A stretch of 64,000 nt of DNA, from contig JBGARE010000001.1 of the NCBI GenBank assembly GCA_044230415.1, positions 497,195-561,194 of the forward strand, in the 5' to 3' direction. Positions 10,055-64,000 of the stretch are shown here, piece by piece. The notes beneath the pieces were generated by a model. It did not search any database. It saw nothing but the letters and a program-made list of their open reading frames with translations, and was not told where the DNA came from. The translations under genes and the position numbers were made by a program. The first letter of the stretch is position 1, and each line of letters begins with the position of its first letter. The stretch is from Kofleriaceae bacterium. Lineage in GTDB: Bacteria > Myxococcota_A > Polyangia > Haliangiales > Haliangiaceae.

Positions 10055-10183
10055 GGCATGTCCACGCGCCGTGCCAGCGTAGGCACGCGGAGCGCCGAGT
10101 GCCTCCGCGCTCGCCGGTGCGCGATGACGCTACGTTGTAGCTCGTTGGACGGGCGCGGCGGCGGACCGTGAGTCGGTCGATCG

Positions 10184-19920: not shown

Positions 19921-20432
19921 CTCGCAGGCGTTCACACGCGGGCTTCACGCTCGTCGAGATGATGGTGGTCGTCGCGATCGTCGCGATCCTCTCCGGCCTT
20001 CTGATTTCGACCTCGAGTCGTCCGGTCGGTGCGAACGCGCGGAACATGTCCGAGACCGTGGTCTCGACGATCAACTTCGCGAAGCTCCGTGCTGGCGCGA
20101 CCCGCCGCGTGCACACGGTGCAAATCACCGATACGCAGCTCGCCGTGTACGCCTGCGCCACCACCGGCCTCGTCTGCACCACGCCGCCCGGCGATCTGAT
20201 CCAGCAGGTCCGCGTCGCCAAGGGCGTCACGATCCTGAACACGTCGAGCACGCTGTACCCCGCGGGTGGTGCGAGCGTGTCGGCGCCGTCGAGCGCGCTC
20301 AACTCCGCGCTCGCCATTCGCCCCGACGGTCAGGCGACGCCAATGACCATCTTCCTCACCGACACGAAGGACTCGTGGCGCGTGCTCGTCTATCACGTGA
20401 CCGGCGGCGCATACGCGCGACAGGGTTGGTAA
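19917..20432 (+). CDS. FimU/FimT/GspH-like minor (pseudo)pilin
   Basis: GTG start overlapping the upstream stop (ctGTGA). VTRRRSHAGFTLVEMMVVVAIVAILSGLLIS is a prepilin signal. The size and pattern resemble the GspH/FimT family. Confidence 0.7.
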   Translation: MTRRRSHAGFTLVEMMVVVAIVAILSGLLISTSSRPVGANARNMSETVVSTINFAKLRAGATRRVHTVQITDTQLAVYACATTGLVCTTPPGDLIQQVRVAKGVTILNTSSTLYPAGGASVSAPSSALNSALAIRPDGQATPMTIFLTDTKDSWRVLVYHVTGGAYARQGW

Positions 20433-20439
20433 CGGAGCC

Positions 20440-23400: not shown

Positions 23401-23967
23401 GAAGACTTGAAGCCGTTCGGTGCGGCGCCGGCGTTGTTCGCGAGCGGGCAGGTCTACGCGGTCGCCGCGTCGGGTGGCTACCTCGACTACGACACCGATA
23501 CCGAGCCGCTGTGGACGAGCAGCAGCACGATGCAACAAGCGGTTGCGGTCGCGATCAACACGCCGGTCGCGAGCACGCCCCTGACCGAAACGACGACGCC
23601 TTCGCCGACCGGCCTCAAGTTCAAGTACGACCTCGGCGCGGGACAGCTCAGCTACTCGCAGGCACAAGTGATCGGCGATCAGATCTTCCTGACGACGGAC
23701 ACCACCGACGTCAACGCGACGTCGTACGGCACCGGTAGCGACACGGGCACGCTGCATCGCATCGACCTCTCGGGCGGCAGTGCGACGACGATCGCGATCA
23801 TGGGTGGTGCGGCGAGCATCGGTCGTCAGGGCACCACGACGTTCGCGGCGACGGGTGAGAAAGCGCAGCAGCTCTCGCTGTCGGCCGGATCGTCCGCACC
23901 GACCGAGGGTGTCAATGGTGGCTCGCAATCGAAGGTGACGCGTCGCCTCTGGCTCCGCACGCTATGA
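20440..23967 (+). CDS. pilY1: PilY1-like type IV pilus tip-associated adhesin (paralog B), about 1170 aa
   Basis: Signal peptide (LIGKLVTTIALVGVTAVATPALA). Collinear with pilY1-A throughout (DFKAGSLIIPATSVFQTDCGAVSMYGLIYNVLRA…, beta-propeller motifs MIYVGASDGMIHAICGD, ELWAFLPR, AVYALDVTFPGAPKILWEH). Confidence 0.8.
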   Translation: MENTMHQTPKLIGKLVTTIALVGVTAVATPALADTKDFKAGSLIIPATSVFQTDCGAVSMYGLIYNVLRANAWLDADPGYGPIEIYYAYNTAKSSPNRCTPTNLHTSPTVSTTWEDGCDFAISDSGGTTNIVSLVNNKVATTDSTITTYDTSGKGNVYPRYALSQVITAAAGVNTVRYSGGAFVIDKSDADTFIGLLRGTIPAKDNGVTINYAPWRLSDAAGVPTACTFNTAWSTSTVGGWVNIHRALVDFTAPVPKLFNSNPPRLALLALDTYNGTGTLSNNILQGYLSRAGLTFTGANGCPTNSPHKLIAATCPTGDTSGEIYDTFDFDDVLNDRLDNTKYKMFWAPHWELDSSTGGGTLNEKAAITKIATFLEGKTGVMAECASISSFEGSQSRESGTEAKFQTCEDNAGACASPEGNRGFQVNSGGWISSDPSGLLRNCTDATTSVGGNCYYISYPSDPYVQIGDFRWYADDGVVADFLPNTASPAARYKNGVLPLISGVTANDVTKLDTPANARASGLLTGDYVSRNQKDDAAGKGNILYLGGHDLTESVAGTKVALQTLLQLGTPDVTSYTTEISRATPIIALLGSGQALVQGTYESVQPIAGTPKKMTLDTDAPTFEFPFVRGHLRGYTNVGTTAATFETLGASTWDTTTLIPTADYAGCTPFTANCRTVFTNLVASCSRDSTKCTNTVLSDDTADEVGPLMASDLLPATQTTLVRRTLEGVPDALLANKYKARLGGIDRSTVAVIPQSSLAGLGARPTMIYVGASDGMIHAICGDSVAPCDTPGRELWAFLPRNQLSSVRNNETRIDGSVRVQDMYGNFDGTGKSYRTVLVFQSSPAAATATAAVYALDVTFPGAPKILWEHPTNGSGLAITMGKISTGQLAAFAETNSGTSTAATEVRAIDVETGLAIWTKSIAMPASRTVSRQVPATGIPGGAVAVDLTDSGSMTDVVFATLYGQIFRLNAADGVNPYEPNPLFQFTEDLKPFGAAPALFASGQVYAVAASGGYLDYDTDTEPLWTSSSTMQQAVAVAINTPVASTPLTETTTPSPTGLKFKYDLGAGQLSYSQAQVIGDQIFLTTDTTDVNATSYGTGSDTGTLHRIDLSGGSATTIAIMGGAASIGRQGTTTFAATGEKAQQLSLSAGSSAPTEGVNGGSQSKVTRRLWLRTL

Positions 23968-50267: not shown

Positions 50268-51653
50268 ATGACCACGGCGCGTACCTCCCTCTCCGAGAAG
50301 AAGCTGGCGAAAGTTCTGGAGCGCGTGCAGCGCGCGCAGAACAAGGTCTTCGAGCGCTATCCGGGCGACTCCGGCGCGCGCCAACCCGTGCACACCGTGT
50401 ACGGCGGCGCGCATCTGTTCACGGCCGACACCGCGAAGAAGCTCGGCGAGCTCTCGCTGCGCGCGCTCGACACGTACGCCCCCGACGCGGCGTCGTTCTC
50501 CGAAGCGATCGGCATCCGCGGCGATCTCGCGCCGAAGGTCTACGAGCGCGTGCGCGAGAAGCTGCGCCGCGAAGCCGTCGAGGACTTCCGCATCGACTTC
50601 GAGGACGGCTACGGCAATCGCCCCGACGCCGAAGAAGACGGTCACGCCGCCGCCGCGGGCATCCAGGTCGCCGCCGGCATGGCCGCCGGTTCGCTGCCGC
50701 CGTTCCTCGGCATTCGCATCAAGCCGCTGACCCGCGATCTCGCGGCGCGCTCGCTGCGCACGCTCGACATCTTCCTCACCGAGCTTCTCGACAAGAGCGG
50801 CGGTCAGCTGCCGCAGAACTTCGTCGTCACGCTGCCGAAGATCCTCTCGCGTATGGACGTCACCGCGCTCGTCGACACGTTCGAGCTCCTCGAGGAACGC
50901 CTCGAGCTGCCGGGCGGATCGCTCAAGGTCGAGTTCATGGTCGAGACCACGCAATCGATCTTCGATCCGAAGGGCCGCTCGATCCTGCCGCGCCTCCACG
51001 ACGCCGCGCGCGGTCGCCTCACGGGCGCGCACTTCGGAACGTATGACTACACCGCGAACTGCGACATCACCGCCGCGCATCAGCGCATGCGCCACCCGGC
51101 GTGCGACTTCGCGAAGCACGTGATGAAGGTGACGTTCGCGGGCACCGGCGTCATGCTCTCCGACGGCGCGACGAACATCATGCCGATCGCTCCGCACAAG
51201 GGATCGAAGGAAGCACCGCTCCTGACCGAAGATCAGAAGCGCGAGAACAAGGCCGCGGTCTACGCCGCCTGGCGCCTCCACGCCGACGACGTTCGCCACT
51301 CGCTCGTCAACGGCTTCTACCAGGGCTGGGATCTCCACCCGGGCCAGCTGCCCACGCGCTACGGCGCGGTCTACGCGTTCTTCCTCGATGGCTTCGCATC
51401 CGCGAGCGAGCGCCTCTCGAACTTCGTCGGCAAGGCCGCCCAGGCAACGCTCGTCGGCGACGTGTTCGACGACGCGGCGACCGGCCAGGGCCTCCTCAAC
51501 TACTTCCTGCGCGGCATCGCGTGCGGCGCCGTCACCGAGCAAGAAGCGCTCGCGACCGGCCTCTCTCTCGACGAGATTCGCTCGAAGTCGTTCGTGAAGA
51601 TCATGGCCGCACGCCGCGCGCAGCCGGCTCCGTCGGCTCCGTCGGCTCAGTAA
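50268..51653 (+). CDS. Hypothetical protein, possibly an HpcH/HpaI-aldolase / citrate-lyase-beta-like TIM-barrel enzyme
   Basis: 461-aa ORF with an IDFEDGYG segment and an overall pattern resembling PEP/oxo-acid-utilising TIM-barrel lyases. Assignment is weak. Confidence 0.4.
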   Translation: MTTARTSLSEKKLAKVLERVQRAQNKVFERYPGDSGARQPVHTVYGGAHLFTADTAKKLGELSLRALDTYAPDAASFSEAIGIRGDLAPKVYERVREKLRREAVEDFRIDFEDGYGNRPDAEEDGHAAAAGIQVAAGMAAGSLPPFLGIRIKPLTRDLAARSLRTLDIFLTELLDKSGGQLPQNFVVTLPKILSRMDVTALVDTFELLEERLELPGGSLKVEFMVETTQSIFDPKGRSILPRLHDAARGRLTGAHFGTYDYTANCDITAAHQRMRHPACDFAKHVMKVTFAGTGVMLSDGATNIMPIAPHKGSKEAPLLTEDQKRENKAAVYAAWRLHADDVRHSLVNGFYQGWDLHPGQLPTRYGAVYAFFLDGFASASERLSNFVGKAAQATLVGDVFDDAATGQGLLNYFLRGIACGAVTEQEALATGLSLDEIRSKSFVKIMAARRAQPAPSAPSAQ

Positions 51654-52240
51654 TACGGCGCCGTTCCCGGCTTCACCGTGCTCCACGTGTAGCCGACGCT
51701 GATCCCCAGCTGCAGCTGGTTGAAGTCCGGCGCGCCCAAGTTCAGGTGCCGCGTCGCACGCGCATCGATGCCGATGCGCACGCCCCAGATATCGAGGCCC
51801 ACGCTCGCCATCGCGATCGGTCCCCACGCGCCGCCGCCCCAATCGTCAGCGACCTTGTCGATCGTGATCGCGTGAATGCCAACGCCGAGGATCGCGCGCA
51901 TCGCCTTCACCTTGACGCCACCGGCCCACACCACCGGCATCGAGAAGCCCTTGTCGTCGCCATCGCCCCAACACTCGAACCCCGCGAGGAAGCCGACCAC
52001 GGGACCGAACGTCATGTGCGGCGCCATCACGGGAAGCAGCTCGTACTCGAGCCGCGCGACCCAGCCCTCGTCGGCCCAGCCGAACACGGCGCTTCCGCCC
52101 AGGCCCGCGGGCGGATGCCGATGGCGCGGCTCGACCGCGGCCCGTGGCCTGTCGTCGGAGACGGCCTCGGCCGCCTTCTGCGCCAGCGCGCTCCGTCCCA
52201 CGAGGGCCAGCGAGACGAGCGCAAAGGCAAGCGACCTCAC
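51647..52240 (-). CDS. Hypothetical secreted / outer-membrane protein
   Basis: Signal peptide MRSLAFALVSLALVGRSALA, Gly/aromatic-rich beta pattern, C-terminal …GTAPYY. Confidence 0.5.
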   Translation of the reverse strand: MRSLAFALVSLALVGRSALAQKAAEAVSDDRPRAAVEPRHRHPPAGLGGSAVFGWADEGWVARLEYELLPVMAPHMTFGPVVGFLAGFECWGDGDDKGFSMPVVWAGGVKVKAMRAILGVGIHAITIDKVADDWGGGAWGPIAMASVGLDIWGVRIGIDARATRHLNLGAPDFNQLQLGISVGYTWSTVKPGTAPYY

Positions 52241-52320
52241 GACTTGGAAACGTCGTGGGACGTCCAGCGCTTACACCGTTGCGGTCCCGCGGCGGTTCGG
52301 GTAGAAAACCCGCTCGTCAC

Positions 52321-52397
52321 GGTGGTCATAGCTCAGTTGGTAGAGCGCCAGGTTGTGGTCCTGGATGTCGCGGGTTCGAACCCCGTTGATCACCCCA
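52321..52397 (+). tRNA. tRNA-His: tRNA-His (anticodon GUG)
   Basis: Cloverleaf read by hand. G-1 paired to discriminator C73 (a His-tRNA hallmark). 7-bp acceptor stem GTGGTCA/TGATCAC. D-arm GCTC-AGTTGGTA-GAGC. Anticodon stem CCAGG/CCTGG with loop TTGTGGT (GTG). T-arm GCGGG-TTCGAAC-CCCGT. 3'-CCA encoded. Confidence 0.85.
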
Positions 52398-52404
52398 AGT
52401 AGAG

Positions 52405-53511
52405 TCAGCGCTGCAAGTAGATGAAGGTGACCGCGGTGCACACGGGCACTGCCTCTCCATTGATCGAGTACGGGGAGTACCGCCACGTCGCGATCCCGGT
52501 CAGCAGATCGCGATCGTAGGCCGGGAAGCCCGTCGAGCGCATCGGCAGCACGGACTCGACGCGTCCCTCCACATCGAGACACACGCGGAACGATCCTTTG
52601 ATCTCCTGACCGCGATACTTCGCGATCTCCGGCTTGGTCGCATCGTCGGGAACAATGGTGCGCCGCCCAGCGATCCGCTTGCCTTCCATCAGCGTCACGA
52701 AGGCTCGCTGCGCGAGTGATAGCGGCGGTCGCACGAACTTCGATTTCGGCGGCGGCAACGGGAGCTCCTCGATCGGCGGTGCCTTGTCCGCCGGATACGA
52801 CATCTGCACCATCGAGCACACCGGGACCGGCTGTCCCGCGTGGAGGAACGGCCGAAATGTCCACGTGCGCGCGGCTGTCACGAACGCATCCATCATCACG
52901 TACGAGGGAGGCGTGTATGGATGGACGTCGGTCACGGCGCCGCTCTCGTCGAGGCAGACCTTCAGCCACATCACGGCGGCCTCATCGCCCGGCGACAGCT
53001 CGCGCGCGAAGCTAGCCGTCGTCGCCGCATCGAACACCGGCACGCGTTGCCCGCCCGTTCGCAGCGCTTCGAACGCGGCCGTGTCCAGCGTGGGAGCGTT
53101 CGGTGTCCCGGGGTGCTGCGACGCGAACCCGATCCACGTCAGCTGCGATCGGTCCCGCATGCGAATGATCCGCGCCTCGACCTCGAAGCCCGGGCCATAG
53201 CTGAGGACGGCGACATCGCCGAGGGCATCCTCTCGCCCATTCGGATGAAGCCGGAGCGTCGACAGACAGCGCGCGAGCTCCGCGAGCTTGTCCGCGTGGA
53301 CTTCTCCCGGAGGAAACGCAGAGGCGCACGCGGCGTCGTCGAACAGCAGGTTGCCCAGCGTGACGGAGTCATGCAGCAACGTGGCGATCGTGGCCGGCTC
53401 GCCCGACAGGTCGTTGGCCGAGGCCTTCGCCGCTTCGCGTGCGTCGGGAGGCTTGAGCCCTGGACCACACGCCCCGATCACCACCGCCAGCACGAACGCT
53501 GCTCGCGACAT
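52405..53511 (-). CDS. Hypothetical lipoprotein with a possible TonB-C-like C-terminal domain
   Basis: Lipobox AVVIGACG after MSRAAFVL. C-terminal …INGEAVPVCTAVTFIYLQR. Begins 8 bp after the tRNA-His 3' end, on the opposite strand. Confidence 0.5.
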   Translation of the reverse strand: MSRAAFVLAVVIGACGPGLKPPDAREAAKASANDLSGEPATIATLLHDSVTLGNLLFDDAACASAFPPGEVHADKLAELARCLSTLRLHPNGREDALGDVAVLSYGPGFEVEARIIRMRDRSQLTWIGFASQHPGTPNAPTLDTAAFEALRTGGQRVPVFDAATTASFARELSPGDEAAVMWLKVCLDESGAVTDVHPYTPPSYVMMDAFVTAARTWTFRPFLHAGQPVPVCSMVQMSYPADKAPPIEELPLPPPKSKFVRPPLSLAQRAFVTLMEGKRIAGRRTIVPDDATKPEIAKYRGQEIKGSFRVCLDVEGRVESVLPMRSTGFPAYDRDLLTGIATWRYSPYSINGEAVPVCTAVTFIYLQR

Positions 53512-53721
53512 GTGCCGAGGATACACGCGAGGTGCGCACGACTCGAAGTCGAGGAGTCCAATCGTATTGAGATCGAACAGCGCCGTGATCGAAGGCGTGC
53601 ACGCACAATTCGTGGTCAGTGGAACGCCGCGCACACTAGGTGCCGGTGCTCCTCTCTCGATTCGTCGCCACCAACGTCGATCGAGAACGTGGCCCATTCG
53701 TGAGGGAACGCTTCCGGCTGG

Positions 53722-53736
53722 TTTGAAAGATTCAAA
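53722..53736. promoter_or_regulatory. Perfect AT-rich palindrome TTTGAA-AGA-TTCAAA in the lower-GC intergenic region upstream of the DUF222 gene
   Basis: Seen directly. It lies in a 360-bp intergenic region that is conspicuously AT-richer than the genome. Confidence 0.3.
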
Positions 53737-53869
53737 TCTCCCAAACGGAGCGTCTGCGCGAGGGTGCGGCTGGAGCGTTCTCGTCCGTGGTTCGTCGCGT
53801 TCTTCTCGCGGAACGCAACAACGAGATCGTCATTGCGAGATCGTGAGTGTCAGAGTCGGATGATAGTCA

Positions 53870-55238
53870 ATGATCATGTCCGTCGATCTCGATGATCTGG
53901 GCGAGCGCATCGCAACGCACGCCGCCCACCTCGACGCCGCCACCCACACGCTGCTCACCGACCTGCGCGAGTTCGACGCCGCGAACGGTTGGTACAAGCA
54001 AGGCGCTCGCTCGTGCGCCGATTGGCTCTCGTGGCGAGTCGGCTGGAACATCGGCACCGCGCGCGAGCACCTTCGCGTCGCTCGCAGGCTCGCCGAGCTG
54101 CCGTTGATCGATGACGCTCTTCGGCGTGGCTCCATCTCGTACGTGAAGGTCCGCGCGATCACGCGTGTCGCGACCACGGCGAACGAGGCACTGCTCCTGA
54201 CCGACGCGCAGCACGCGACCGGCTCGCAGCTCGAGCGCATCTGTTGCAAGTACGCGGCCGTCGTTCGCGCCTCGAAGGAACCCGACGAGGGCTACGACCG
54301 CGATCGTCGCTATCTTCGTCGTTTCGATCTCGGCGACGGAATGGTGAAGATCGATGGCGTCTTTTATTTTGAAGAAGCGGCGATGATCTGGGCAGCGCTC
54401 GAGGCCGTCGCTCGCGCTCGCACGAGCGAGCATCCTCGGGCCGAGACAACCAGCGGCGCGGAGACCGCAACAACACGCGATGGCGCCGCCGTCGCGATGG
54501 CGCTCGATGCTCCATCGATGGGCACTATTCCGAAGCGTGAGCGAGAGGCTCGATTCGATCGCGCCGATGCCTTGGTCTCGCTCGCTCGCGACACGTTGCG
54601 CGGCGATCGCGTGCACGCCGTCCCGACGGAGCTGGTCGTCACCGTTGCCGCCGAGACGCTGGCGAATCCGTTGAGCGCGCCCCGATCCGTTCGCGGTCAC
54701 GAGCGATGGCACCTGCGTTTCCGCGGAAACGGCCCGTCGCCTCGCGTGCGACTGCGGCGTCGTCCACATGGTCGAGGATCAGGCCGGCACGACGCTGTCC
54801 GTCGGTCGGAAGACGCGCTCGATCCCCGCGTCGATGAAGCGTGCGCTGTTGAAACGAGACACGACGTGCCGCTTCCCGGGCTGCTGCAACCGCATCTTCG
54901 TCGAGGGTCACCATATCCATCACTGGGCCAATGGTGGCGAGACCTCGCTCGGAAACCTGGTCGGCCTGTGCAGCCACCACCACCGCTTTGTCCACGAGTA
55001 CGGCTATCGCGTCGAGCTCGACGAGCGCCAGCAGCCGCGGTTCTTCGATCATTGCGATCGATTGGTCACGGATGCGCCTCCGCGCCCAGCACCGCGACGG
55101 CTCGGAATGCAGGCACTGGTCGACAGGCACCGCGAGCTCGACATTTCCGCGGACACGAACGAGCCGCGATGGGACGGCGATCCCGTGAACTATCCGTGGG
55201 TCATCGGGGATCTCGTCCGCGTCGATGGACTCCACTAG
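53870..55238 (+). pseudogene. DUF222-family HNH endonuclease, interrupted by a frameshift (N-terminal DUF222 region in one frame, CDC…HNH domain in another)
   Basis: Frame A (53870-about 54690) gives the typical DUF222 N-terminus (…ADWLSWRVGWNIGTAREHLRVARRLAELP…). Frame B (open from 54675 to 55238) gives DGTCVSAETARRLACDCGVVHMV…CRFPGCCNRIFVEGHHIHHWANGGETSLGNLVGLCSHHHRFVHE, the canonical HNH end of the same family. A TGA at 54672-54674 closes frame B just upstream. Confidence 0.6.
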
Positions 55239-55354
55239 GTTAGATCGTGACCGCGTGGCCATCGCGTACGGGAGGCGATCTCGGTCAACTCGATCGGGTT
55301 CATCACCCCACGTTGATGTGAAACGCGGTGGCTGCATCGGGCTCTACCCGTTCG

Positions 55355-58300
55355 ATGCCGAATGTTCGTCGTGCCTTCGCACTCCTCATGCTCGCGGCTT
55401 GTGCCGACGATGCAACCAGCCCACCCGAAACCGTCACGATAGCCAAGGGCGAGAACGAGGCGTGCCCGGTCGGCGCCGTCTCGTTCCCGACCAAGCTTCC
55501 CGACGCGGCGACTCCCGCTCTCGGGGCGCTGCCCGGTGCGTTCGATGTGACGCCGTCGGGCGACGCCGCCTACTCGATTCCCCTCGCGCTGCCACCGACT
55601 CCCACGGTGCTGCCGTTTCCACTCTCGCTCGAGTATCGAGCGAGTGGTGGCGACAGCTTCTTGGGAACCGGCTTCTCGCTGGCGGGCCTGTCGGTGATCT
55701 CGCGTTGCCCGCGAACCTTCGCGCGCGATCTCGAAGTTCGTGCCGTGCAATACGACGACACCGACAACTTCTGCCTCGACGGCAAACGCCTCGAGAACGT
55801 CGGCGTCGATACCTACCGGACGTATCCGGACACGTTCGTCCGCATTCGAGCGAATCGCAACGCCGACAAGGAGATCGAGTCGTTCACGCTCCGAGCTCCG
55901 AGCGGCGTCCACTACACGTACGGCGGAACCGATCACGGCCGCGTGCTCGCGTATTCGGACAAGCTCGTCAACACGGGCTGGCTCCTCGACAAGATCTCGA
56001 CGGACACGACCCCGCTCGGGGTCGACATCGACTACACGAACATCAAGGATCAGACGCTCGGGTATACGACCGAGGTCGTCCCTGCGTCGGCCACGTACGG
56101 CGAGGCCCAGATCCAGTTCGCGTACGATTCGAAGGCACCGGAGGACGTTCGCGAGAGTTGGAACCACGGGATGCGAATGACGCGCTCGTTGCAGTTGCGA
56201 CACATCGCGATGGGAACGCTCGGCGGCGAGCTGACCGCGCGCAAGTACGTGTTCGGCTACGACGCCGGAAAGCGAACGCGTCGGACGAATCTCGTGTCGG
56301 TCAAGCAATGCGATGCGAGCAATGCTTGCCAGCCTCCGACGACGTTCACGTACGACAGCACACCGCTCGGGAGAAACGAGCTCTCGTGGACCGACACGCA
56401 AGGCGTGATCCCGCCACCGGTCGCAGCACAGGCGACCGTGATGGCGATGGATGTCACCGGCGATGGGCTCGACGATCTCGTCACCGCCGACACGACGCCC
56501 ACGCCATCGGCGACGACGGTGTGGAGCATTGCCCGCAATATCGGCGACGGAAAGTTCGCCGCGCCGGTCGTCGCGTTGACGGAGCCGATGCGGCAGATAA
56601 CAGCTGTGTCGGCAGACTCGGTGATTCTCGACCGCGGAACAGCGATCGACTACAACGGTGACGGCCTCCTCGACATCTTGCTCCACGACGTCGACGGCCA
56701 ATTTGCCAACTGGCAGGTGCTGCTCTCGGCGTTCGGATCGACCTCGTTCACGCGCTTCGATACGGGCATCGCGCGGCCGTTCGCGTCGACGATCCCGAAG
56801 GGCTTGGTCGGTATCGACGGCTCCGTGCATCTCGCGGACTTCGACGGTGACGGGGTCTCGGATCTCGTGCAGTGCAAGAGCGCGGGTAACAGCCAGTGGA
56901 CGTGGACCGTCAACACGTGGAGAGGGCCGCCGGTGTACGCGGCCGGCTTCGATCCCTTCGCGCTGGTGATCGAAAACAGCGAGTTCAACTCGCACGCATT
57001 CACGCTGCGCGGCTATCCATGTGACACACCGGTGATTCCACTCGATGTGGATCACGATGGCCGCATGGACTTGCTCGTTCGCGAAGTGTTGTTCGCCGAC
57101 GGCACGAATCCGACGCAGTACGGCAGCAAGCTGTTCGCGATCGGGCGTCATGGGACGTGGTCGAGCTTCGAGGTAACCGATCCGAAGCTGCCGGCGCCCA
57201 CGGGGCAGCTCGCGTTTGCCGACATCAACGGAGACGGCTTGCTCGACGCGCTGTCGACGCCTGCCGTGCCAAACACGAACTTCGACGTCAGGATCAATCA
57301 AGGTGGCACCTTCGGGCCGGCGACCAACGCATTGCCGTCGTCGCAGATGGTGGTCGACGTGTCGCTGAACCTCGCCGCACCGACCGATGTCGATGGTGAC
57401 GGCCGTCAGGACGTGATCGTTCCGATCAAGACGAGCGGCAGTTTCGTTCAATGGAAGGTTCTTCACGCTCGCAATGACGGGCAGGCGATCGCAGGGGCTC
57501 CGCTGGAAGTGTGGAGCCCGGGATTTCCGACCGACCTCGAGTTTCAGATCGACCAGGAACCCACGCTCTCCCATCCGCTCGCGCCTCGCGTCGCCGACGT
57601 CGACGGCAACGGTGCACACGACGTGTTGTTGTTCACGGGCGGCAAACTGCATGCCTTCAAGAGCAAGGCGTTCGAAGAGGACATGCTCGCGACCATCACC
57701 ACCGGATCCAATGCAAGGGCTCCGGGGGATGCCAAGTTCGTTCCCGACGTGTCCATTTCGTATGGACACTTGGTCGATCGGTTCATCACCGACGGTGGCG
57801 CATCAGCGCCAGAGAAGTATCTGTATCTGTCGCGCTCCGACAAGACGAACACCTGCGAGTACCCGCGCCGCTGCGCGGTCGGCGCACGTCGCGTGGTCGC
57901 GAAGTACGAGACGAACAATGGTGCCGACGTGAAGCACGTCTTCGATCTGCACTATCGCGACGGTCGGGTGCATCTCCGCGGCTGGGGTTGGCTCGGCTTC
58001 GGTACGCAGATCCTGCTCGACGACGCGAACAAGGCGACAAAGACAACGACGTTCGAGAATCGTACACCGGCGGCGATCTTCGGCGACTACCCGTTAGCGG
58101 AACGCGCGGCATCGGTCGTCACCACGGTGCGCGCGAAAGCGACCGACCCGAACCCGAACCGGATCGATTCGTTCCGGATCGACATCACGCGTGAGATGGA
58201 AGTAATCAACACGAGCACTGGTCTGCAGTACTTTGTCGCGCCGACGGCGACGCGAGAGCAGACGTTGCAGGACGGTGTGATCGTTTCGGATGCCCGGACC

Positions 58301-61300
58301 TCGACGACGTACGACGAGCTCGGCAACCCGAGAAACAGCGTCTCTTGGGTCGAGGGTGTCGACGAGACCACGACCATCGAACGCGACTACTGGAACGATC
58401 AATCCAACTGGCTGCTCCGCCGGCCGAAGCATGTCGTGCGCTGCAGCACCACCGGCGGAGGCGCGCAATGCAAGACTCTCGATGTCGACTACGACGCCTT
58501 AGGTCGACCCGTCACGCAGCGAAGTAGTGCCGATGGTGGCGCGGGCGTGACGGTCACCTATACGTACGATGACAAAGGCAATCCAAACACGGCCGCTGTC
58601 TCCGACGCGACCGGCACTACGCGCAAGTCCTGCATGACCTTCGATTCGACGGGCACGTTCCCGACGGCGATGATCGACGGTCTAGGTCACAAGCGCTTCT
58701 ATCAATACGACGCCCGATTCGGGACGCTGAGCACGGAGATCGATCCGAATGGTCTCGCCACGCAATGGGCAACTGATCGTCTCGGTCGCGTGACCCAGGA
58801 GCGCCGGCCGGACGGAACGCAGACCACGATCCTGCGCTCGCAGATCGTCGACCCGATCCGTGGGAAGGCCACGCAGGTCAAGACGATGGCCACCGGCGCA
58901 CCGACTACGACGGTGCAGTTCGATCAACGCGATCGGCCGGTCATCGAGTGGACCGACAATCTGCATCCGTACTGCACGGGCCCTTGCCTGATCGTTCCGC
59001 GCCTCGTGCACTACACCGAGTACGAGACACTCACGGACGAAGTTCGGCGAGAGTCGATGCCCGTCGACGAGACGTTGCCGCTGACCACGTTCTGGAATTC
59101 GTATCTGCGAGATGCGACGGGACGCATTCTCAAGTCGGACACGTACTGGGCTGGGGGCACGATGAAGTTCGGCTACGACAAGCTCGTCACGACGGTCACC
59201 ACCCCCGGCAATATCGTCAAGACGATCACGACCGATCCGGGCGGCCGCACCGTCGCGATCAAGGATCCATCGGGAACCTCGACATTCGAATACGGTCCGT
59301 TCGGGCGCCTCGCGAAGTCGACCTCGTCGGCGGGAGAGGTCTCGCGGTACAGCTACGACGGGTTCGGGCGCATCACGTCCGCGACGGAACCGAATCGCGG
59401 AACTACGACGCGCACGTTCGATGGCTTCGGCAATCTCGTCGAAACGACCGATGCGATGGGCCGCACGATGAAGTGGACGTATGACACCGGCGGTCGACCG
59501 CTGACGCGTACGGACAATGACGGCCTCGCCACGTGGACGTGGGACACGGCTCCTGGTGCGGGCATCGGGCACATCGCCGCGCTCGATGCGCCCGCCGGTA
59601 AGCGGAGCTATTCGTATACGGCGGTCGGGCAGCTCGCATCGGACACACTGACGATCGGCAGCGAATCGTTCGTGACGACGCGGACGTACGACACGGCTGC
59701 GCGGCTCGCGACGATCGCGTATCCGCTCGCACCGGGACTCCCGGGGGCGGTCGTCGCGAAGCGCGAGTACGACAGCGCGGGGCACTTGGTTCGCGTGGCC
59801 GATGCGACGACGAACGCGAACTACTGGACGATCACCGCAAAGGACGCGTACGGACATCCGACCGAAGAGCTCCTCGGAAATGGCGCGAAGACGGCGATCG
59901 GCTACGTCCTCGACAAGAATCGCGTCTCGTCGATCAAGACGACGCTCGGAGCGTCGACGCTGCAAGATCTCACCTACGTGTGGACCGATCGGCTCGATCT
60001 CGCGAGTCGTGCGGATGGTCTGCAGCACAAGACCGAGAGCTTCACGTACGACCCGCTCGATCGGCTCACCTGCGCGAAGTTCGACGCGTCGCCGACGTGC
60101 GCACTCTCCGTCGCATATGCGGCGAACGGGAACATCGCGTCGAAGTCCGATGTCGGCAGCTACGTTTACGCGGCCGATCATCCGCATGCGGTGCGCTCGA
60201 TCGCGAGCAAGACGTACGACTACGATCTCGTCGGCAATCAGATCAAACGCCCCGACGCGACGCTGACATACACCGCGAACGATCAAGTCCGCTCGATCGT
60301 GCCAACTGCCGGTGCCAGCGTCACGTACGACTACGACGCCAATGGCAAGCGGATCCGCCGCACGATCGGGACCGAGACGGCGATCTACGCCGGTTTGTAC
60401 GAGCGCACCACGAAAGCTTCGGGCGTCGATCATCTCTATTCGATCACGAACAACGATCACGTCGTCGCGCTTGTCACCCGCCATGCAGGGCTCGCGGATA
60501 CGACGACGTTCGTCCACGTCGATCATCTCGGCTCGCCCGATGTCTTGACGAACAAGACGGGTGTGGTGATCCAGCGGCTCAGCTACGACGCGTTCGGTCA
60601 GCGTCGCAATCCAGCGTGGGGCCAGTCCTACACGCCCGCGACCTCGGCGGTACCGATGTCCTATACGGGACAGCACGAGGACGTGCTCGACCTCGTCGAC
60701 ATGAAGGGTCGTACGTACGACCCGAAGCTCGGACGGTTCCTTCAAGCGGACCTGATCTCCGGATCGCCGCTCGCGAGCCAATCGAACTCGTACAGCTACG
60801 TTGGCAACAACCCGCTCGTCTTCACCGATCCGAGCGGCTACACGGCCGTGCTGCATCAAACGACGCAGACGACGACCGTGAGCGTTCCGAGCTCGGCGCC
60901 ATCGACGGATCCATCACCGACGATCAACGCATCCCTCGAGCAGTCGGCACCGGCCCCGGCGCACGACACGCGCAATGCGGGTGAGAACACTGCGAACGAC
61001 ACGGCGAGCACCGGAACCACCTCGACGGTGTCCTTCGATGTCTGGGACGTGGTCGACACCGGCCTGCACTTGGCGCTCGAGTCCGGTCCGTGGGCCGGTA
61101 TGTCCGTCGAGCCGCTGCCCACGGTCGGCGACGCGATCGGTCAATCGATCGGTTCACTCGGCAGCATCGGTAGCCACGGCATCCACAAGTCCAAGGACAC
61201 GCCGGACTCCGAGTTCGTTGGCCCACCACTACTGATGGACGACGACGACACTCTCCCGAAGTGGTGTGCTCCGCTCGCCATCTTCGCGATCGGAGTCGGT

Positions 61301-61810
61301 GGTGCCGAGATCATGGCCGACATCATCGTCGAGATGATGGTGGAGTCTCTCGTCGAGGCTGGCTTCGACTATCTCGAGGATTGGGTTCTCGATGTCGGCA
61401 AGGATCTGTTGAAGCGGTATCTGAACATCGACGACTTCGAGCTCCCCGACGTCGTCGAACACCTGTTGCGTCGCTTCATCCAGTTCGGGACGGTCTCGAA
61501 GATCCCGAAGGACAAGGTCGACTACGGCCCGAAGCGTCGCGGGGGCGCCCCGGTCGGAAACGACAAGAAGCCGATCGAGCTTCATCACCTCGACCAGAAG
61601 AACGACTACTCACCGCTCGCCGAGCTGATCCGCAGAGATCACCGTGGCAAAGGCGCCTACAAGCGGAACCACGGCAATACGGGTCAGCAAGGCTCGTCGA
61701 TCATGCGCAAAGACTTCGACCACTGGACCGGGAAGTACTGGGAGCACCAGTTCGACACGGGCCAGTTCGACGGGCTCGACGATTGCCCGCCGATGCTCAA
61801 CCTCCGATAG
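55355..61810 (+). CDS. Rhs/YD-repeat polymorphic toxin lipoprotein: SpvB-like N-terminal domain, FG-GAP/VCBS integrin-like repeats, YD-repeat RHS shell with RHS core, and a C-terminal LHH-type HNH/EndoVII nuclease toxin domain
   Basis: Lipobox LLMLAAC. A SpvB/TcB-like N-terminal segment (about 55,500-56,300). Seven or more DxDGDGxxDLV FG-GAP repeats (about 56,450-57,650). Numerous YD repeats (TYTYDDKGN, YQYDARFG, YSYDGFGR, KWTYDTGGRP, TYDYDANGKRIRR) from about 58,300 to 60,700. RHS-core end …RTYDPKLGRFLQADLISGS…YSYVGNNPLVFTDPSGY (about 60,700-60,860). A 310-aa C-terminal tip with KKPIELHHLDQKNDYSPLAELIRRDHRG (the LHH signature of the HNH/EndoVII toxin clade) at about 61,570-61,650. Confidence 0.85.
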   Translation: MPNVRRAFALLMLAACADDATSPPETVTIAKGENEACPVGAVSFPTKLPDAATPALGALPGAFDVTPSGDAAYSIPLALPPTPTVLPFPLSLEYRASGGDSFLGTGFSLAGLSVISRCPRTFARDLEVRAVQYDDTDNFCLDGKRLENVGVDTYRTYPDTFVRIRANRNADKEIESFTLRAPSGVHYTYGGTDHGRVLAYSDKLVNTGWLLDKISTDTTPLGVDIDYTNIKDQTLGYTTEVVPASATYGEAQIQFAYDSKAPEDVRESWNHGMRMTRSLQLRHIAMGTLGGELTARKYVFGYDAGKRTRRTNLVSVKQCDASNACQPPTTFTYDSTPLGRNELSWTDTQGVIPPPVAAQATVMAMDVTGDGLDDLVTADTTPTPSATTVWSIARNIGDGKFAAPVVALTEPMRQITAVSADSVILDRGTAIDYNGDGLLDILLHDVDGQFANWQVLLSAFGSTSFTRFDTGIARPFASTIPKGLVGIDGSVHLADFDGDGVSDLVQCKSAGNSQWTWTVNTWRGPPVYAAGFDPFALVIENSEFNSHAFTLRGYPCDTPVIPLDVDHDGRMDLLVREVLFADGTNPTQYGSKLFAIGRHGTWSSFEVTDPKLPAPTGQLAFADINGDGLLDALSTPAVPNTNFDVRINQGGTFGPATNALPSSQMVVDVSLNLAAPTDVDGDGRQDVIVPIKTSGSFVQWKVLHARNDGQAIAGAPLEVWSPGFPTDLEFQIDQEPTLSHPLAPRVADVDGNGAHDVLLFTGGKLHAFKSKAFEEDMLATITTGSNARAPGDAKFVPDVSISYGHLVDRFITDGGASAPEKYLYLSRSDKTNTCEYPRRCAVGARRVVAKYETNNGADVKHVFDLHYRDGRVHLRGWGWLGFGTQILLDDANKATKTTTFENRTPAAIFGDYPLAERAASVVTTVRAKATDPNPNRIDSFRIDITREMEVINTSTGLQYFVAPTATREQTLQDGVIVSDARTSTTYDELGNPRNSVSWVEGVDETTTIERDYWNDQSNWLLRRPKHVVRCSTTGGGAQCKTLDVDYDALGRPVTQRSSADGGAGVTVTYTYDDKGNPNTAAVSDATGTTRKSCMTFDSTGTFPTAMIDGLGHKRFYQYDARFGTLSTEIDPNGLATQWATDRLGRVTQERRPDGTQTTILRSQIVDPIRGKATQVKTMATGAPTTTVQFDQRDRPVIEWTDNLHPYCTGPCLIVPRLVHYTEYETLTDEVRRESMPVDETLPLTTFWNSYLRDATGRILKSDTYWAGGTMKFGYDKLVTTVTTPGNIVKTITTDPGGRTVAIKDPSGTSTFEYGPFGRLAKSTSSAGEVSRYSYDGFGRITSATEPNRGTTTRTFDGFGNLVETTDAMGRTMKWTYDTGGRPLTRTDNDGLATWTWDTAPGAGIGHIAALDAPAGKRSYSYTAVGQLASDTLTIGSESFVTTRTYDTAARLATIAYPLAPGLPGAVVAKREYDSAGHLVRVADATTNANYWTITAKDAYGHPTEELLGNGAKTAIGYVLDKNRVSSIKTTLGASTLQDLTYVWTDRLDLASRADGLQHKTESFTYDPLDRLTCAKFDASPTCALSVAYAANGNIASKSDVGSYVYAADHPHAVRSIASKTYDYDLVGNQIKRPDATLTYTANDQVRSIVPTAGASVTYDYDANGKRIRRTIGTETAIYAGLYERTTKASGVDHLYSITNNDHVVALVTRHAGLADTTTFVHVDHLGSPDVLTNKTGVVIQRLSYDAFGQRRNPAWGQSYTPATSAVPMSYTGQHEDVLDLVDMKGRTYDPKLGRFLQADLISGSPLASQSNSYSYVGNNPLVFTDPSGYTAVLHQTTQTTTVSVPSSAPSTDPSPTINASLEQSAPAPAHDTRNAGENTANDTASTGTTSTVSFDVWDVVDTGLHLALESGPWAGMSVEPLPTVGDAIGQSIGSLGSIGSHGIHKSKDTPDSEFVGPPLLMDDDDTLPKWCAPLAIFAIGVGGAEIMADIIVEMMVESLVEAGFDYLEDWVLDVGKDLLKRYLNIDDFELPDVVEHLLRRFIQFGTVSKIPKDKVDYGPKRRGGAPVGNDKKPIELHHLDQKNDYSPLAELIRRDHRGKGAYKRNHGNTGQQGSSIMRKDFDHWTGKYWEHQFDTGQFDGLDDCPPMLNLR

Positions 61811-61814
61811 GAGG

Positions 61815-62036
61815 CTAGTTCCGGAAGAACAGCGCGCAGGTCACGCAGTGAAACGATGCGTCCGACGACTGCGCCATGACGATCGAAACGACCTGGGACT
61901 CCGGGTGATCGGAGATCCAGCGCGTGACGTTCTCGCCGAGCACTTCGCGATCGCGATGCATCGTGGCTGAGAACACCTTGACGCCGGTGAAGGCCATACC
62001 AGGACGCAACACCAATTCTTTACTGCTCGGCGCCAT
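61815..62036 (-). CDS. Small ORF (73 aa) convergent with, and 5 bp beyond, the Rhs toxin stop; candidate orphan/immunity-like gene, low confidence
   Basis: ORF in a 360-bp lower-GC spacer (about 58% GC) between the Rhs gene and the convergent esterase. MAPSSKELVLRPGMAFTGVKVFSATMHRDREVLGENVTRWISDHPESQVVSIVMAQSSDASFHCVTCALFFRN. No family recognised; could be non-coding. Confidence 0.25.
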   Translation of the reverse strand: MAPSSKELVLRPGMAFTGVKVFSATMHRDREVLGENVTRWISDHPESQVVSIVMAQSSDASFHCVTCALFFRN

Positions 62037-62171
62037 TGTGTTCGCACCGTAGCACCGGCGTCTTCCGATAGCTCGCGCTACGGAGCGAGCTTCACAGGTG
62101 GGCGAGGTATTGGATGCAGAGGCCGTAATGGTGATTGCACTGCACCTGTGGGCAGGTTGGTCACCTTGCTG

Positions 62172-63266
62172 TCAGAGCGGACACGATTGCACGCCGGTAC
62201 AGGAGCCCGTACGCGGGGTAGCTCCACCCACACCGATGCCGCACCACTCGGGGGTTCCCGTCGGTAGTCCCGTGCTCGTCCACGGTGATGCGCCTGCGGG
62301 GAGCCAGTACGGATGATCGAGGACGAACTTGTAGAGCACGCGCAGCCCCACCATCGGATCGACGGGCGGCGCAGCGTGACCACAGTTGTGCACGCACTCG
62401 ACGACGAAGCTGCCTTGCGCTTCGAGCTTGCTGCCGAGCGCGTGCGAGCCCGCCTCGAAGCTCACACCGCCGCACGAGTCCGTCGAGCCGCCCCAGCCGT
62501 AGATGGTCGGGATCGGGCGCTCGGAGCCCGTCCACCCGCGCACGTCGGCGAAGCCGCCGAAGCCGCCCGTCGGGCCGACGCCACCGGAGATCACGATCGC
62601 GCTCGACAGTCGCGACGATCGACGCTGCATGAGCTGCGCGGTCCACAGCGCTCCCGCGCTCACGCCGACCGACGACACGCACTGCTCCTGCACGGGAAAC
62701 TGCTGCGCGACGCACGCGAGGATGTCGTCGAACAGCACCGCTTCTTGCTCGACGCGAGCGTTCGTCACGAAGTCCATGTACGGCCACGCGAGATCCACGT
62801 TCGCGATCGGGAGCAGTACGTCGCCCTTCTTCTCGGGAACGGCGATCAGCATGCGGAGCTCGTCGGCTGCGGGTTGGGCGTCGCCGTTGTTCACCATCGA
62901 GCTCGCGCTGCCGCCGATGTAGTGCCACATGAACAGCAGCGGCAGCGTTTCGGTCTGCGTGTCGAGAGCGCTCGGCACCACGAGCACGAACTTCCGTGGC
63001 ACGCCGCTCGACACGATCGTGTTCATGCCGGCGACGAGGGTCGGACACGTACCCGCGTACTGCGGTAGTGGTGGTGGCGTCGGTGCACCCGCTGGTGGCG
63101 GCGTCGCGCAGGTCACGCCGGCGTACGACGTCATCGGCGCGTCCGGCATCGGCGTCGACGAGCCGCTGCCATCGCCACCGTCGGGACCGTCGGGGCCGTT
63201 GGTCGGCGGCGCATCGCTGCCGCTGCAGCCGACGAGGAGAAGTGCGAGGAGGACGTGTTTGTTCAT
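62172..63266 (-). CDS. Secreted alpha/beta-hydrolase esterase (PHB-depolymerase / feruloyl-esterase-like family), lipoprotein
   Basis: Lipobox LLVGCSG. Gly/Pro-rich linker. Esterase core with the nucleophile-elbow GVSAGA and LPLLFMWHYIGGSASS. Cys-rich C-terminus. Confidence 0.65.
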   Translation of the reverse strand: MNKHVLLALLLVGCSGSDAPPTNGPDGPDGGDGSGSSTPMPDAPMTSYAGVTCATPPPAGAPTPPPLPQYAGTCPTLVAGMNTIVSSGVPRKFVLVVPSALDTQTETLPLLFMWHYIGGSASSMVNNGDAQPAADELRMLIAVPEKKGDVLLPIANVDLAWPYMDFVTNARVEQEAVLFDDILACVAQQFPVQEQCVSSVGVSAGALWTAQLMQRRSSRLSSAIVISGGVGPTGGFGGFADVRGWTGSERPIPTIYGWGGSTDSCGGVSFEAGSHALGSKLEAQGSFVVECVHNCGHAAPPVDPMVGLRVLYKFVLDHPYWLPAGASPWTSTGLPTGTPEWCGIGVGGATPRTGSCTGVQSCPL

Positions 63267-64000
63267 AGGATCGGGTCGTAGTTCTGACAAGCGGTGTCGA
63301 TGACTGGCAGTGCGTCGAGGAAGAACTGGTCGTAGTTGGCGGCGCAGACATCACCGATGAAGCCGCGCTCGTCGAACTTGTTCGTGAAGCCGAGCAGTCG
63401 CGATGCGGGCGTCGCTCCGCACGCGTTGTTGAGCTGCCGTCCGATCAGCGACAGCACGACGATGTTCTGTGCGTAGCCTCCGCGATGCGCGACGACGGTG
63501 TTGTACCAATCGGTCGACGTGCCGCCCGAGCCGTAGCTGTCGCAGACGCCGTTGCCGTCGCAGCCATCCGCGACGTCGTCCTCGTCGGTGATGATCACGA
63601 TGACGAGCAACGACTCGGGGCGCGAGAAGCCCGCGTTGCACGCGCCCTGTGCGTTGCGCGATGGCTCGAGCGCGTTCATCACCGCGCGGGCGATGCGCTC
63701 GTCGCTCGAGCCACCCGCGCCGACCTTGCCGGCGCAGGCGAACTTCTGCGCGAGGCTGGGCTCGGTGCCATCCATCCACGAGTGTCCGCTCGCGAACGGT
63801 CCGCACGTGCTCGCGCTCGACGACGGACCGCCGGTCTGCGTGATCAGATCACCGATCTCGCGACAGCCCACGGCGTTCGCTTGGTAGTCCTCGGTGGTGA
63901 CGATGCCGATGTGATAGCTCTGCGCCTGACCGAGTCGCGATTGGATGCCGGCGACGAAGCCCGGGAAGCTCGCGATCAAGCTGTCCTGCTGATCGGCCAT
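63263..64000 (-). CDS. Hypothetical protein, possibly 5'-truncated by the window edge (an ATG lies exactly at the edge)
   Basis: ORF reaches the window end. It contains …ESLLVIVIITDEDD…, Cys-rich. ATGA overlap with the downstream esterase gene. Confidence 0.4.
   Translation of the reverse strand: MADQQDSLIASFPGFVAGIQSRLGQAQSYHIGIVTTEDYQANAVGCREIGDLITQTGGPSSSASTCGPFASGHSWMDGTEPSLAQKFACAGKVGAGGSSDERIARAVMNALEPSRNAQGACNAGFSRPESLLVIVIITDEDDVADGCDGNGVCDSYGSGGTSTDWYNTVVAHRGGYAQNIVVLSLIGRQLNNACGATPASRLLGFTNKFDERGFIGDVCAANYDQFFLDALPVIDTACQNYDPIL

Follow-up and report, generated by a model that had tools for sequence, protein, structure and literature searches.

The window analysed here, 64,000 nucleotides of a Kofleriaceae contig, carries at 55355–61810 on the plus strand a complete gene for an Rhs polymorphic toxin, with 2151 codons and a stop. 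We consider it probable, at roughly 0.7, that the product is a toxin of the TcdB/TcaC class that is exported by Sec, lipid-anchored after processing by signal peptidase II (SPII) and used in contact antagonism, and that consists of a TcB-like and a TcC-like half, an autoprotease and an LHH DNase tail. It is an ordinary member of a common myxobacterial weapon class. The real oddity of the locus is a missing immunity gene, a point that was absent from an earlier, sequence-only reading of this DNA. That reading had described a lipoprotein that is an Rhs/YD-repeat polymorphic toxin, with FG-GAP repeats, an RHS core and, at its C-terminus, an HNH nuclease tip of the LHH type. Pfam and NCBIfam matches confirmed this observation, and the interpretation placed on it was borne out in part.

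The gene was delimited from the open reading frame (ORF) list, its translation and the Pfam and NCBIfam matches. The frame is open from a GTG at 55328 to the stop codon at 61808–61810, with no internal stops. We took the ATG at 55355 as the more likely start, because its product, MPNVRRAFALLMLAAC, combines a positively charged n-region with a hydrophobic core and carries the lipobox L-A-A-C. Coding-type periodicity of third-position GC (GC3) is kept along the whole 6.4-kb ORF. The tail and the shell share one frame and the third-position signal is unbroken across their junction, in agreement with the earlier view that the C-terminus belongs to the same gene. The sequence motifs quoted then sit where they were placed, and the sizes needed correction: the protein has 2151 rather than 2100 residues, and the tail 322 rather than 310. 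The suggestion that the codon usage of the tail is less GC-biased than that of the shell did not hold, as the shell has a GC3 of 0.80 and the tip one of 0.83. Total GC is lower in the tip because of its second codon positions, and hence reflects amino-acid composition.

Gene calls on 21 public contigs, from metagenomes and metagenome-assembled genomes, include a product that is identical from M12 to its end. When the gene was compared among seven contigs, only two T-to-C differences were seen, both in L001 (Logan SRR14092390) at window positions 56598 and 56605 (gene positions 1244 and 1251), 7 nt apart; the remaining copies are identical over 6.4 kb. A promoter scan returned no sigma-70-like sites, which is weak evidence in a myxobacterium, and a terminator scan gave terminator-like matches on the minus strand only, within coding sequence.

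Signal peptide, TcB-like half and RHS shell

The protein begins with a putative SPII lipoprotein signal peptide (55355–55402, plus strand), read by eye from the translation as MPNVRRAFALLMLAA followed by Cys16 of the L-A-A-C lipobox. SPII-like or SPI-like (signal peptidase I) signals recur among the homologs, and the closest of these, P0002–P0016, have Cys-bearing signal peptides. From these features we infer lipidation at Cys16 and an outer-membrane location. The residue at +2 after the lipobox Cys is Ala; in Myxococcus xanthus, the reported retention signal is a Lys at this position.

Two domains follow the signal, both on the plus strand and with approximate limits. The first, at 55517–56389, is a TcB-type N-terminal (SpvB-like) domain, delimited from a family profile and an AlphaFold2 model. 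The second, at 56417–57724, is an FG-GAP (integrin-like) beta-propeller, the equivalent of the TcB gate domain. The propeller was readily detected by Pfam (FG-GAP_3, 2e-20; FG-GAP, 3.2e-12), and its DxDGDG-type motifs are invariant in the propeller region of a 17-homolog alignment, A3. The single-sequence Pfam matches of the head were below threshold, both for SpvB (E 0.0056, 16.4 bits versus a cut-off of 22) and for TcdB_toxin_midN (E 0.0013). Because of this weak SpvB score, the identity of the domain was tested by homolog annotation, by the family profile and by the AlphaFold2 fold.

We observed the following. Among the 120 best homologs, PF03534 (SpvB) is precomputed on almost all and PF12256 on many. 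The family profile built from alignment A3 was searched against PDB sequences. Its N-terminal part matched YenB (1.3e-6), TcdB1 (2e-6) and the SpvB N-domain (1.8e-4), and its C-terminal part YenC2 (5e-14) and the Rhs shells of type VI secretion systems (T6SS) down to 2.7e-46; integrin alpha-L was a weak match of the profile. The AlphaFold2 model, covering aa 17–1182 and made from an alignment of 29 sequences, had a pLDDT of 83.6 and a pTM of 0.86, with an all-beta propeller. In a Foldseek search of the PDB with this model, the best matches were all TcB subunits, namely TcdB2 (of the PTC3 holotoxin, TcdB2–TccC3), TcdB1 and YenB (E 7e-40 to 2e-33, TMq 0.54–0.63; best match E 7e-40, TMq 0.62). 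T6SS Rhs proteins, teneurins and a bacterial teneurin-like protein reached a TMq of only 0.08–0.16. The model also aligned to the SpvB N-domain structure 6p0x with a TMt of 0.59. The SpvB-like head proposed earlier is thus sub-threshold in a single-sequence Pfam search, and the family profile and the predicted fold support a TcB/SpvB-like domain.

The RHS/YD-repeat shell occupies 57752–60841 (plus strand) and ends in an Rhs core autoprotease at about 60614–60838, as judged from Pfam, NCBIfam and PDB matches. RHS_repeat (PF05593) matched in six stretches at 5.7e-29, YD_repeat_2x (TIGR01643) at 7.5e-23 and Rhs_assc_core (TIGR03696) at 3.8e-17. Rhs shells in the PDB were matched at 2e-25 from the single sequence and at 2.7e-46 (8h8a) from the family profile. 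The cleavage motif PxxxxDPxG(L/F/Y) is present as NNPLVFTDPSGY. The autoprotease residues R1786, D1799 and D1825 are all present and invariant across the 17 homologs, DPKLGRF starting at aa 1789 and DPSGY at aa 1825. The 13 residues from R1786 to D1799 equal the spacing of R2103 and D2116 in BiTLP (PMC13018210). By analogy with TccC3 and BiTLP, cleavage is predicted after DPSGY1829 (PMC7861908, PMC13018210), and the predicted released fragment, aa 1830–2151, would have 322 residues and 35.1 kDa. This is a typical TcC cargo size, because 97.9% of TcC cargo regions fall within 201–400 aa (PMC7861908). Homologs are 33–38% identical up to DPSGF/Y and their tails beyond this point are unrelated. 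The protein itself has no PAAR or VgrG domains. On the grounds of sequence and model, we consider it to be a natural single-chain TcB–TcC ('BC') fusion with a signal peptide.

This arrangement is widespread. We collected 602 homologs that share the scaffold and differ in their tips, which were AHH, LHH, SHH, WHH, HNH, colicin-DNase or unannotated, and the SpvB, FG-GAP and RHS architecture recurs in Sorangium, Minicystis, Polyangium, Corallococcus and Myxococcus. Databases contain many relatives of the scaffold, of the tip and of the two combined, and the class has been described before. The combination had earlier been considered unusual for a deltaproteobacterial-type genome. That view has to be given up, as the architecture is common in Myxococcota, often with HNH-type tips, and its class was defined in 2012 (PMC3482391). 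As a toxin, the protein adds little to what was known.

The LHH tail and the missing immunity gene

The released tail would comprise three parts, all on the plus strand. A Ser/Thr/Pro-rich linker (aa 1830–1891, 60842–61027), seen in the translation, is followed by an orphan acidic pre-toxin segment (aa 1892–2045, 61028–61489), delimited from its isoelectric point (pI), the tip model and hydropathy, and by a Tox-LHH HNH/EndoVII nuclease domain (aa 2046–2151, 61490–61807), delimited from PF14411, its relatives and the model. The linker and the acidic segment together separate the cleavage site from the nuclease by 216 residues. The pI is 4.07 for the pre-toxin segment, 9.27 for the nuclease and 4.85 for the whole tail.

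In the tip model, the first 76 residues (aa 1892–1967) have a pLDDT below 50. Four helices are predicted in the acidic segment (tip-model residues 80–152), with one hydrophobic stretch, LAIFAIGVGGAEIMADIIV. No convincing relative of this segment was found among 1.84 billion representative sequences, and the few matches that overlap it show no conservation there. Five close scaffold homologs (P0003, P0005, P0009, P0011 and P0014) have in their C-terminal ~350 aa a common Gly-rich hydrophobic pre-toxin module of the pattern GGFLGGLxLGLVPFAGVGHQLLD…GLAIGQIVGG…GVPAxVVST, which precedes differing toxins (AHH, WHH/colicin DNase, LHH and others) and resembles a translocation or pre-toxin element common to these proteins. 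This module is missing from the window protein.

The LHH domain was matched by PF14411 at E 1.1e-9 in the whole protein and at E 1.1e-10 (41.9 bits, cut-off 23.3) in the tail alone, so that the profile searches proposed with the earlier reading returned the expected families for tip and shell alike (RHS and YD repeats at 5.7e-29 and 7.5e-23). A word-index homolog search with the 309-aa tail missed even the identical protein, which is a limit of the index, and exhaustive phmmer was used instead, with the last 260 aa against the 1.84 billion representatives at E ≤ 1e-3. It returned 457 LHH relatives, with essentially all matches within the last ~100 aa and identities of at most 53%. All 47 sampled LHH sequences matched PF14411. 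Their scaffolds vary: 16 of the sampled sequences had RHS repeats and 11 PT-HINT, and among 46 relatives seven matched FG-GAP_3 and six SpvB. As judged from these sequences, the LHH tip moves between scaffolds and is already present on the SpvB/FG-GAP/RHS scaffold.

The LHH family is defined by an HH dyad, made of a metal-binding His and a general-base His, and by two helix-associated His residues (PMC3113570). The domain has L2076 with the H2077–H2078 dyad, H2096 and N2105-H2106-x-N2108, as well as the invariant E2090, N2108 and W2129; the motif ELHHLDQ lies at aa 2075 and ELIRRDH at aa 2090. It keeps each of the 14 invariant columns of the 47-sequence LHH alignment, the catalytic set included. 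The beta-beta-alpha core of the tip model has a pLDDT above 90. A phmmer search of the tail against PDB sequences gave no match at E up to 10.

We next examined the genes that accompany LHH tips. The homolog P0011, which has an LHH tip, is followed after 11 nt by a co-directional 119-aa DUF2251 gene. Genome loci encoding LHH relatives were fetched (79 in all), and the 48 with the strongest matches were checked for a downstream ORF. In 30 of the 48 (L003–L016, L018–L022, L024–L026, L028–L032, L037, L042 and L049), there is a co-directional ORF of ~130–145 aa, either overlapping the toxin gene or beginning no more than about 100 nt past its stop codon; examples are L009 4257–4679, L012 4260–4682 and L004 4314–4724. 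The products form a ~135-aa family with the motif DDGRVAYAYL...GDVWLYN...PF(L/A)NP...KPGWS and no Pfam match above threshold (DUF2251 at E 0.031 on one member). Its carriers include nearly all loci with the toxins closest to the window toxin, and come from Polyangium jinanense, Polyangiaceae, other Myxococcota and many further phyla. The family is presumably the immunity protein of LHH toxins.

Distant DUF2251-like relatives of this family (profile E about 1e-6 to 1e-7) are encoded at seven further loci and by the gene after P0011. Other loci have SUKH (L043, L044 and L047), UPF0167 (L033, L036, L040 and L041) or other small ORFs; Imm-SUKH is the only immunity listed for Tox-LHH in the 2012 catalogue (PMC3482391). 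A credible immunity candidate is wanting in only two or three of the 48 loci.

The co-directional immunity gene that is usual for LHH relatives is absent beside the window toxin. The next gene is convergent and its stop codon lies 4 nt beyond the toxin stop. A tblastn search of the window with the DUF2251 protein adjacent to P0011 gave no matches. The convergent gene (61815–62036, minus strand) encodes 73 aa and is the last in a minus-strand series, in which it follows a Ser/Thr kinase gene, a 296-aa gene and a 364-aa gene. It belongs to a conserved but unannotated Myxococcota family of 60–100-aa proteins, with 424 matches in Kofleriaceae, Polyangia and Myxococcaceae and no Pfam match. We considered the 73-aa ORF as a novel immunity protein and rejected it: the family is widespread in Myxococcota, the identical protein is present in toxin-less lineages, the distant homologs lie in unrelated contexts and the profile of the ~135-aa immunity family did not match it.

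Known systems and rival explanations

The 'TcdB/TcaC' class of polymorphic toxins was defined in 2012 by Zhang, de Souza, Anantharaman, Iyer and Aravind, with delta-proteobacteria listed (PMC3482391). The window protein shares with it the signal peptide, SpvB, integrin-like beta-propeller, RHS repeats and variable C-terminal toxin. It differs in two respects. The 2012 table pairs Tox-LHH with type II, V, VI and VII secretion systems and Photorhabdus virulence cassettes and not with TcdB/TcaC (PMC3482391), whereas the LHH domain here is on the TcdB/TcaC scaffold; and no immunity gene of any family follows the window toxin.

The BC cocoons of Tc toxins (Photorhabdus TcdB2–TccC3 and Yersinia entomophaga YenB–YenC2; 4o9x, 6h6e and 4igl) resemble it in the TcB fold, the YenC2 match, the autoprotease motif and the cargo size. 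Unlike these, the window protein is one polypeptide instead of two, has an SPII signal and has no TcA nearby. Its predicted cargo is a DNase rather than the typical eukaryote-directed enzyme, and its host is a myxobacterium.

In M. xanthus, signal-peptide Rhs proteins act in T6SS-independent kin discrimination, the third known myxobacterial system of this kind (PMC10433427). By description, Rhs4 and Rhs5 are similar to the window protein, being large Rhs proteins of the same phylum with a signal, T6SS-independent, encoded on accessory DNA and carrying a polymorphic C-terminal toxin (PMC10433427). They have about 4000 aa and lie on Mx-alpha prophages, whereas the protein here has 2151 aa and its gene occupies a slot beside a tRNA gene, where none of the genes examined was a phage gene.

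Teneurin-like proteins (TLPs; Raoelijaona et al. 2026, PMC13018210; 9ifo and 9pt5) also have a YD shell around a cleaved polymorphic toxin. Those of Myxococcota are SEC/SPII lipoproteins without known delivery machinery (PMC13018210), and the YD shell region matches in sequence. However, TLPs have an FN-plug and an NHL propeller in place of the SpvB and FG-GAP domains found here, and the match of the N-terminal fold is poor (TMq 0.16). Almost all TLPs have a downstream immunity gene (PMC13018210), and there is none here. T6SS Rhs effectors with Tox-LHH, such as Nte of Neisseria cinerea (PMC8263058), combine an RHS shell with a PF14411 tip, and T6SS Rhs shells are the best PDB sequence matches. 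In contrast, the window protein has a signal peptide and a TcB-like head instead of PAAR or VgrG, and no T6SS genes nearby. The Neisseria effectors are each listed with an immunity protein (PMC8263058), whereas none lies beside the window gene.

With these parallels, the favoured mechanism would run as follows. Sec would export the precursor, which would receive its lipid at Cys16 and then move to the outer membrane. By analogy with the solved structures of Tc BC cocoons and of Rhs shells, a hollow cocoon would form from the two halves, TcB-like and TcC-like; inside it the autoprotease (R1786, D1799, D1825) would cut after Y1829 and the 322-aa tail would remain trapped. Three parts would make up this tail: the S/T/P linker, which is disordered, the orphan acidic helical segment, and a basic DNase of the Tox-LHH His-Me-finger type whose catalytic set is intact. 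Contact with a neighbouring cell would free the tail, and the LHH domain would then degrade the DNA of that cell. The purpose may be competition or kin discrimination, as shown genetically for the M. xanthus signal-peptide Rhs proteins.

Several points weigh against this mechanism. Among the window ORFs scanned, there was no TcA-like partner, T6SS gene or other delivery machinery. Nine positions of the LHH domain that are at least 80% conserved differ here, including T2092I (96% Thr) and N2101A (93% Asn), and these divergent positions could reduce its activity. Fold searches with the tip model gave no independent confirmation of the HNH fold. A hidden Markov model (HMM) of the ~135-aa family (30 members), run in all six frames over 67.9 kb (the window and a 3.9-kb extension), gave a best E of 1.8; the same HMM had no match in the ±10 kb contexts L082–L085, and the positive controls L009 and L012 scored 1e-50. 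An active DNase without immunity is awkward, because in the related teneurin-like system shell–toxin chimeras are toxic to E. coli (PMC13018210).

The toxin could instead be orphaned, decaying or disarmed, with its immunity gene lost, the nuclease attenuated or the gene silent, so that the locus does little. The closeness of the next stop codon (4 nt) in place of an immunity gene fits this explanation, as do the divergent positions, two of them at least 93% conserved, in an LHH domain that diverges further than any other member of its clade (identities of 53% or less). The adjoining frameshifted pseudogene and the lack of a sigma-70-like promoter, weak evidence for a myxobacterium, point the same way. 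We nevertheless regard it as unlikely, as the 6.4-kb ORF is intact with GC3 periodicity throughout, the 14 alignment-invariant LHH residues and the autoprotease residues are all kept, and the sequence recurs across many samples, on 21 contigs in all, with no more than 2 single-nucleotide polymorphisms.

Another explanation, which we regard as improbable, is that the protein is the BC component of a true Tc (ABC) toxin. A TcA-like pentameric injector encoded elsewhere in the genome would then dock on the FG-GAP propeller and the tail would be injected into eukaryotes such as amoebae, nematodes, insects or fungi; siblings would never be targets and immunity would be needless. The N-terminal half is indeed closest in structure to TcB of TcA-bound holotoxins (6h6e, 6suf and 9c4k), and the missing immunity gene resembles the situation of eukaryote-acting Tc toxins. 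The cargo size is typical of TcC and natural tcB–tcC fusion genes exist (PMC7861908). However, no TcA was found within 55 kb upstream or 6 kb downstream of the Rhs gene, which is the stretch covered for it; apart from the Rhs gene, the 64-kb window has no ORF of TcA size, none exceeding about 1230 aa, and its large ORFs showed no TcA domains. Classical TcB and TcC are not known to have signal peptides, unlike the clade of the window protein, which carries SPII or SPI signals. An immunity gene is nearly universal beside the close LHH-tip relatives, which argues for bacterial targets. The tail is acidic, unlike most translocated Tc cargos, though 36.5% of those have a pI below pH 7 (PMC7861908).

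A further reading, which is doubtful, is an immunity-independent Rhs DNase. Compartmentalisation alone would keep the producer safe, through co-translational Sec export as a lipoprotein precursor, the BC cocoon and masking of the basic nuclease by the acidic four-helix segment, and the toxin would be aimed at non-kin prey in predation. If true, its logic would be unlike the toxin–immunity pairing that defines polymorphic toxin systems. Least probable of all, and by our estimate very unlikely, is an active toxin against which an unlinked immunity gene protects or whose acidic four-helix segment serves as a cis inhibitor or DNA mimic until delivery; an acidic helical segment (pI 4.07) directly before a basic nuclease (pI 9.27), a segment without relatives and so specific to this immunity-less toxin, and a likeness to colicin DNase immunity proteins, which are small acidic four-helix bundles, speak for it.

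The locus bears on how such toxins are delivered, being a clean natural example of a predicted single-chain TcB–TcC cocoon with a Sec/SPII signal and no TcA in view. Shell opening and delivery without TcA or T6SS are unexplained for TLPs (PMC13018210) and for the class of the window protein alike. An apparently intact nuclease without the usual immunity gene raises the question of whether export and encapsulation can replace immunity. SpvB–FG-GAP–RHS lipoproteins with HNH-type tips are abundant in Myxococcota and have been known as a class since 2012, so what remains of mild interest is the absent immunity gene, the unique acidic pre-toxin segment and an exact replacement polymorphism at the locus.

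The strain-variable slot beside tRNA-His and the rest of the window

This polymorphism was seen by blastn of contig L083 against the window. L083, L084 and L085 (including GCA_020051655.1) form a sister lineage, which is 94% identical over window 51077–52402 and 89.6% identical over 61814–64000. Between these flanks lies a strain-variable segment of 9.4 kb (52403–61813, without strand), in whose place L083 has 7.2 kb of unrelated DNA, that is, a replacement. The sister-lineage DNA (L083 10341–16179, also in L084 and L085) includes a 289-aa gene and two genes for PAS-domain sensor kinase or response-regulator hybrids of 891 and 641 aa. Over window positions 51815–64000, contig L082 agrees with the window at 100% identity. 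As the 9.4-kb slot varies between strains, the Rhs gene is accessory. The sister lineage, with flanks about 90–94% identical and the locus exactly replaced, offers a natural toxin-minus partner for studies of kin discrimination outside Myxococcus.

The left boundary is a tRNA-His (GTG) gene at 52322–52397 (plus strand, ARAGORN), 2.96 kb upstream of the Rhs gene, in line with the distance of about 3 kb given earlier. The left junction falls 5 nt past the tRNA 3' end, directly after …CACCCCA-AGTAG, and on the right homology resumes where the 73-aa gene has its stop codon, CTA. A search over 15.5 kb for direct repeats (13 nt or longer) of the 3' end of tRNA-His gave none, and no recombinase domain was found in the scanned ORFs of the segment (the TonB_C gene, the frames of the DUF222-HNH pseudogene, and the Rhs gene with overlapping ORFs). 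The slot thus exchanges unrelated cargo without recognisable integrase or att sites. The island-like character proposed in the sequence-only reading stands as far as a tRNA-bounded replacement relative to the sister lineage is concerned; the tRNA repeat and recombinase that might mark an island were not seen.

The segment has a GC of 0.637 and its genes a GC3 of 0.79–0.80, versus a GC of 0.66–0.67 in the flanks and a GC3 of 0.86–0.91 in most core genes. The alternative segment of the sister lineage has a GC of 0.644 and a GC3 of 0.81–0.82, and several flank genes are similar. Because both alternative segments are compositionally alike, composition is silent on which state of the slot is derived. 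The contexts of distant 73-aa homologs were compared for the ancestral state, and synteny was not kept.

Besides the Rhs gene, the segment carries a tandem TonB_C gene on the minus strand and a frameshifted DUF222-HNH pseudogene. The TonB_C gene, the first of the segment, lies at 52405–53697 (Pfam TonB_C, E 9.8e-8, aa 356–426) and was called as 362 aa (52405–53493) on public contigs. A second TonB_C-like repeat was seen by eye upstream in it, VCLDESGAVTDV...PVPVCSMVQMSY versus VCLDVEGRVESV...AVPVCTAVTFIY. The pseudogene (53870–55238, plus strand) has its DUF222 part (53870–54400, E 2.4e-11) and its HNH part (54768–55238, E 2.2e-4) in differing frames, in keeping with the degraded neighbour noted earlier, and its coding GC3 signal changes frame near 54400–54650. 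In the gene calls of public contigs it appears as two pieces, an ORF of 156 aa and a spurious antisense ORF of 281 aa.

The large ORFs elsewhere in the window were considered as TcA and rejected; they encode a prolyl oligopeptidase, a SpoIIE phosphatase, a GATase1-like/VWA protein and two proteins of ~1200 aa. The last two (10172–13861 and 20401–23967, both plus strand; GC3 0.87–0.90) have weak C-terminal PQQ_2/BamB-like matches (E 0.0023 and 0.0003) and are possibly paralogous large secreted proteins. Just upstream of tRNA-His, a gene at 50268–51653 (plus strand) encodes a DUF6986 protein (E 7.5e-187) that also matches the malate-synthase TIM barrel weakly. On contig L092 the DUF6986 gene adjoins purine-catabolism genes (allantoicase, OHCU decarboxylase and transthyretin-like).

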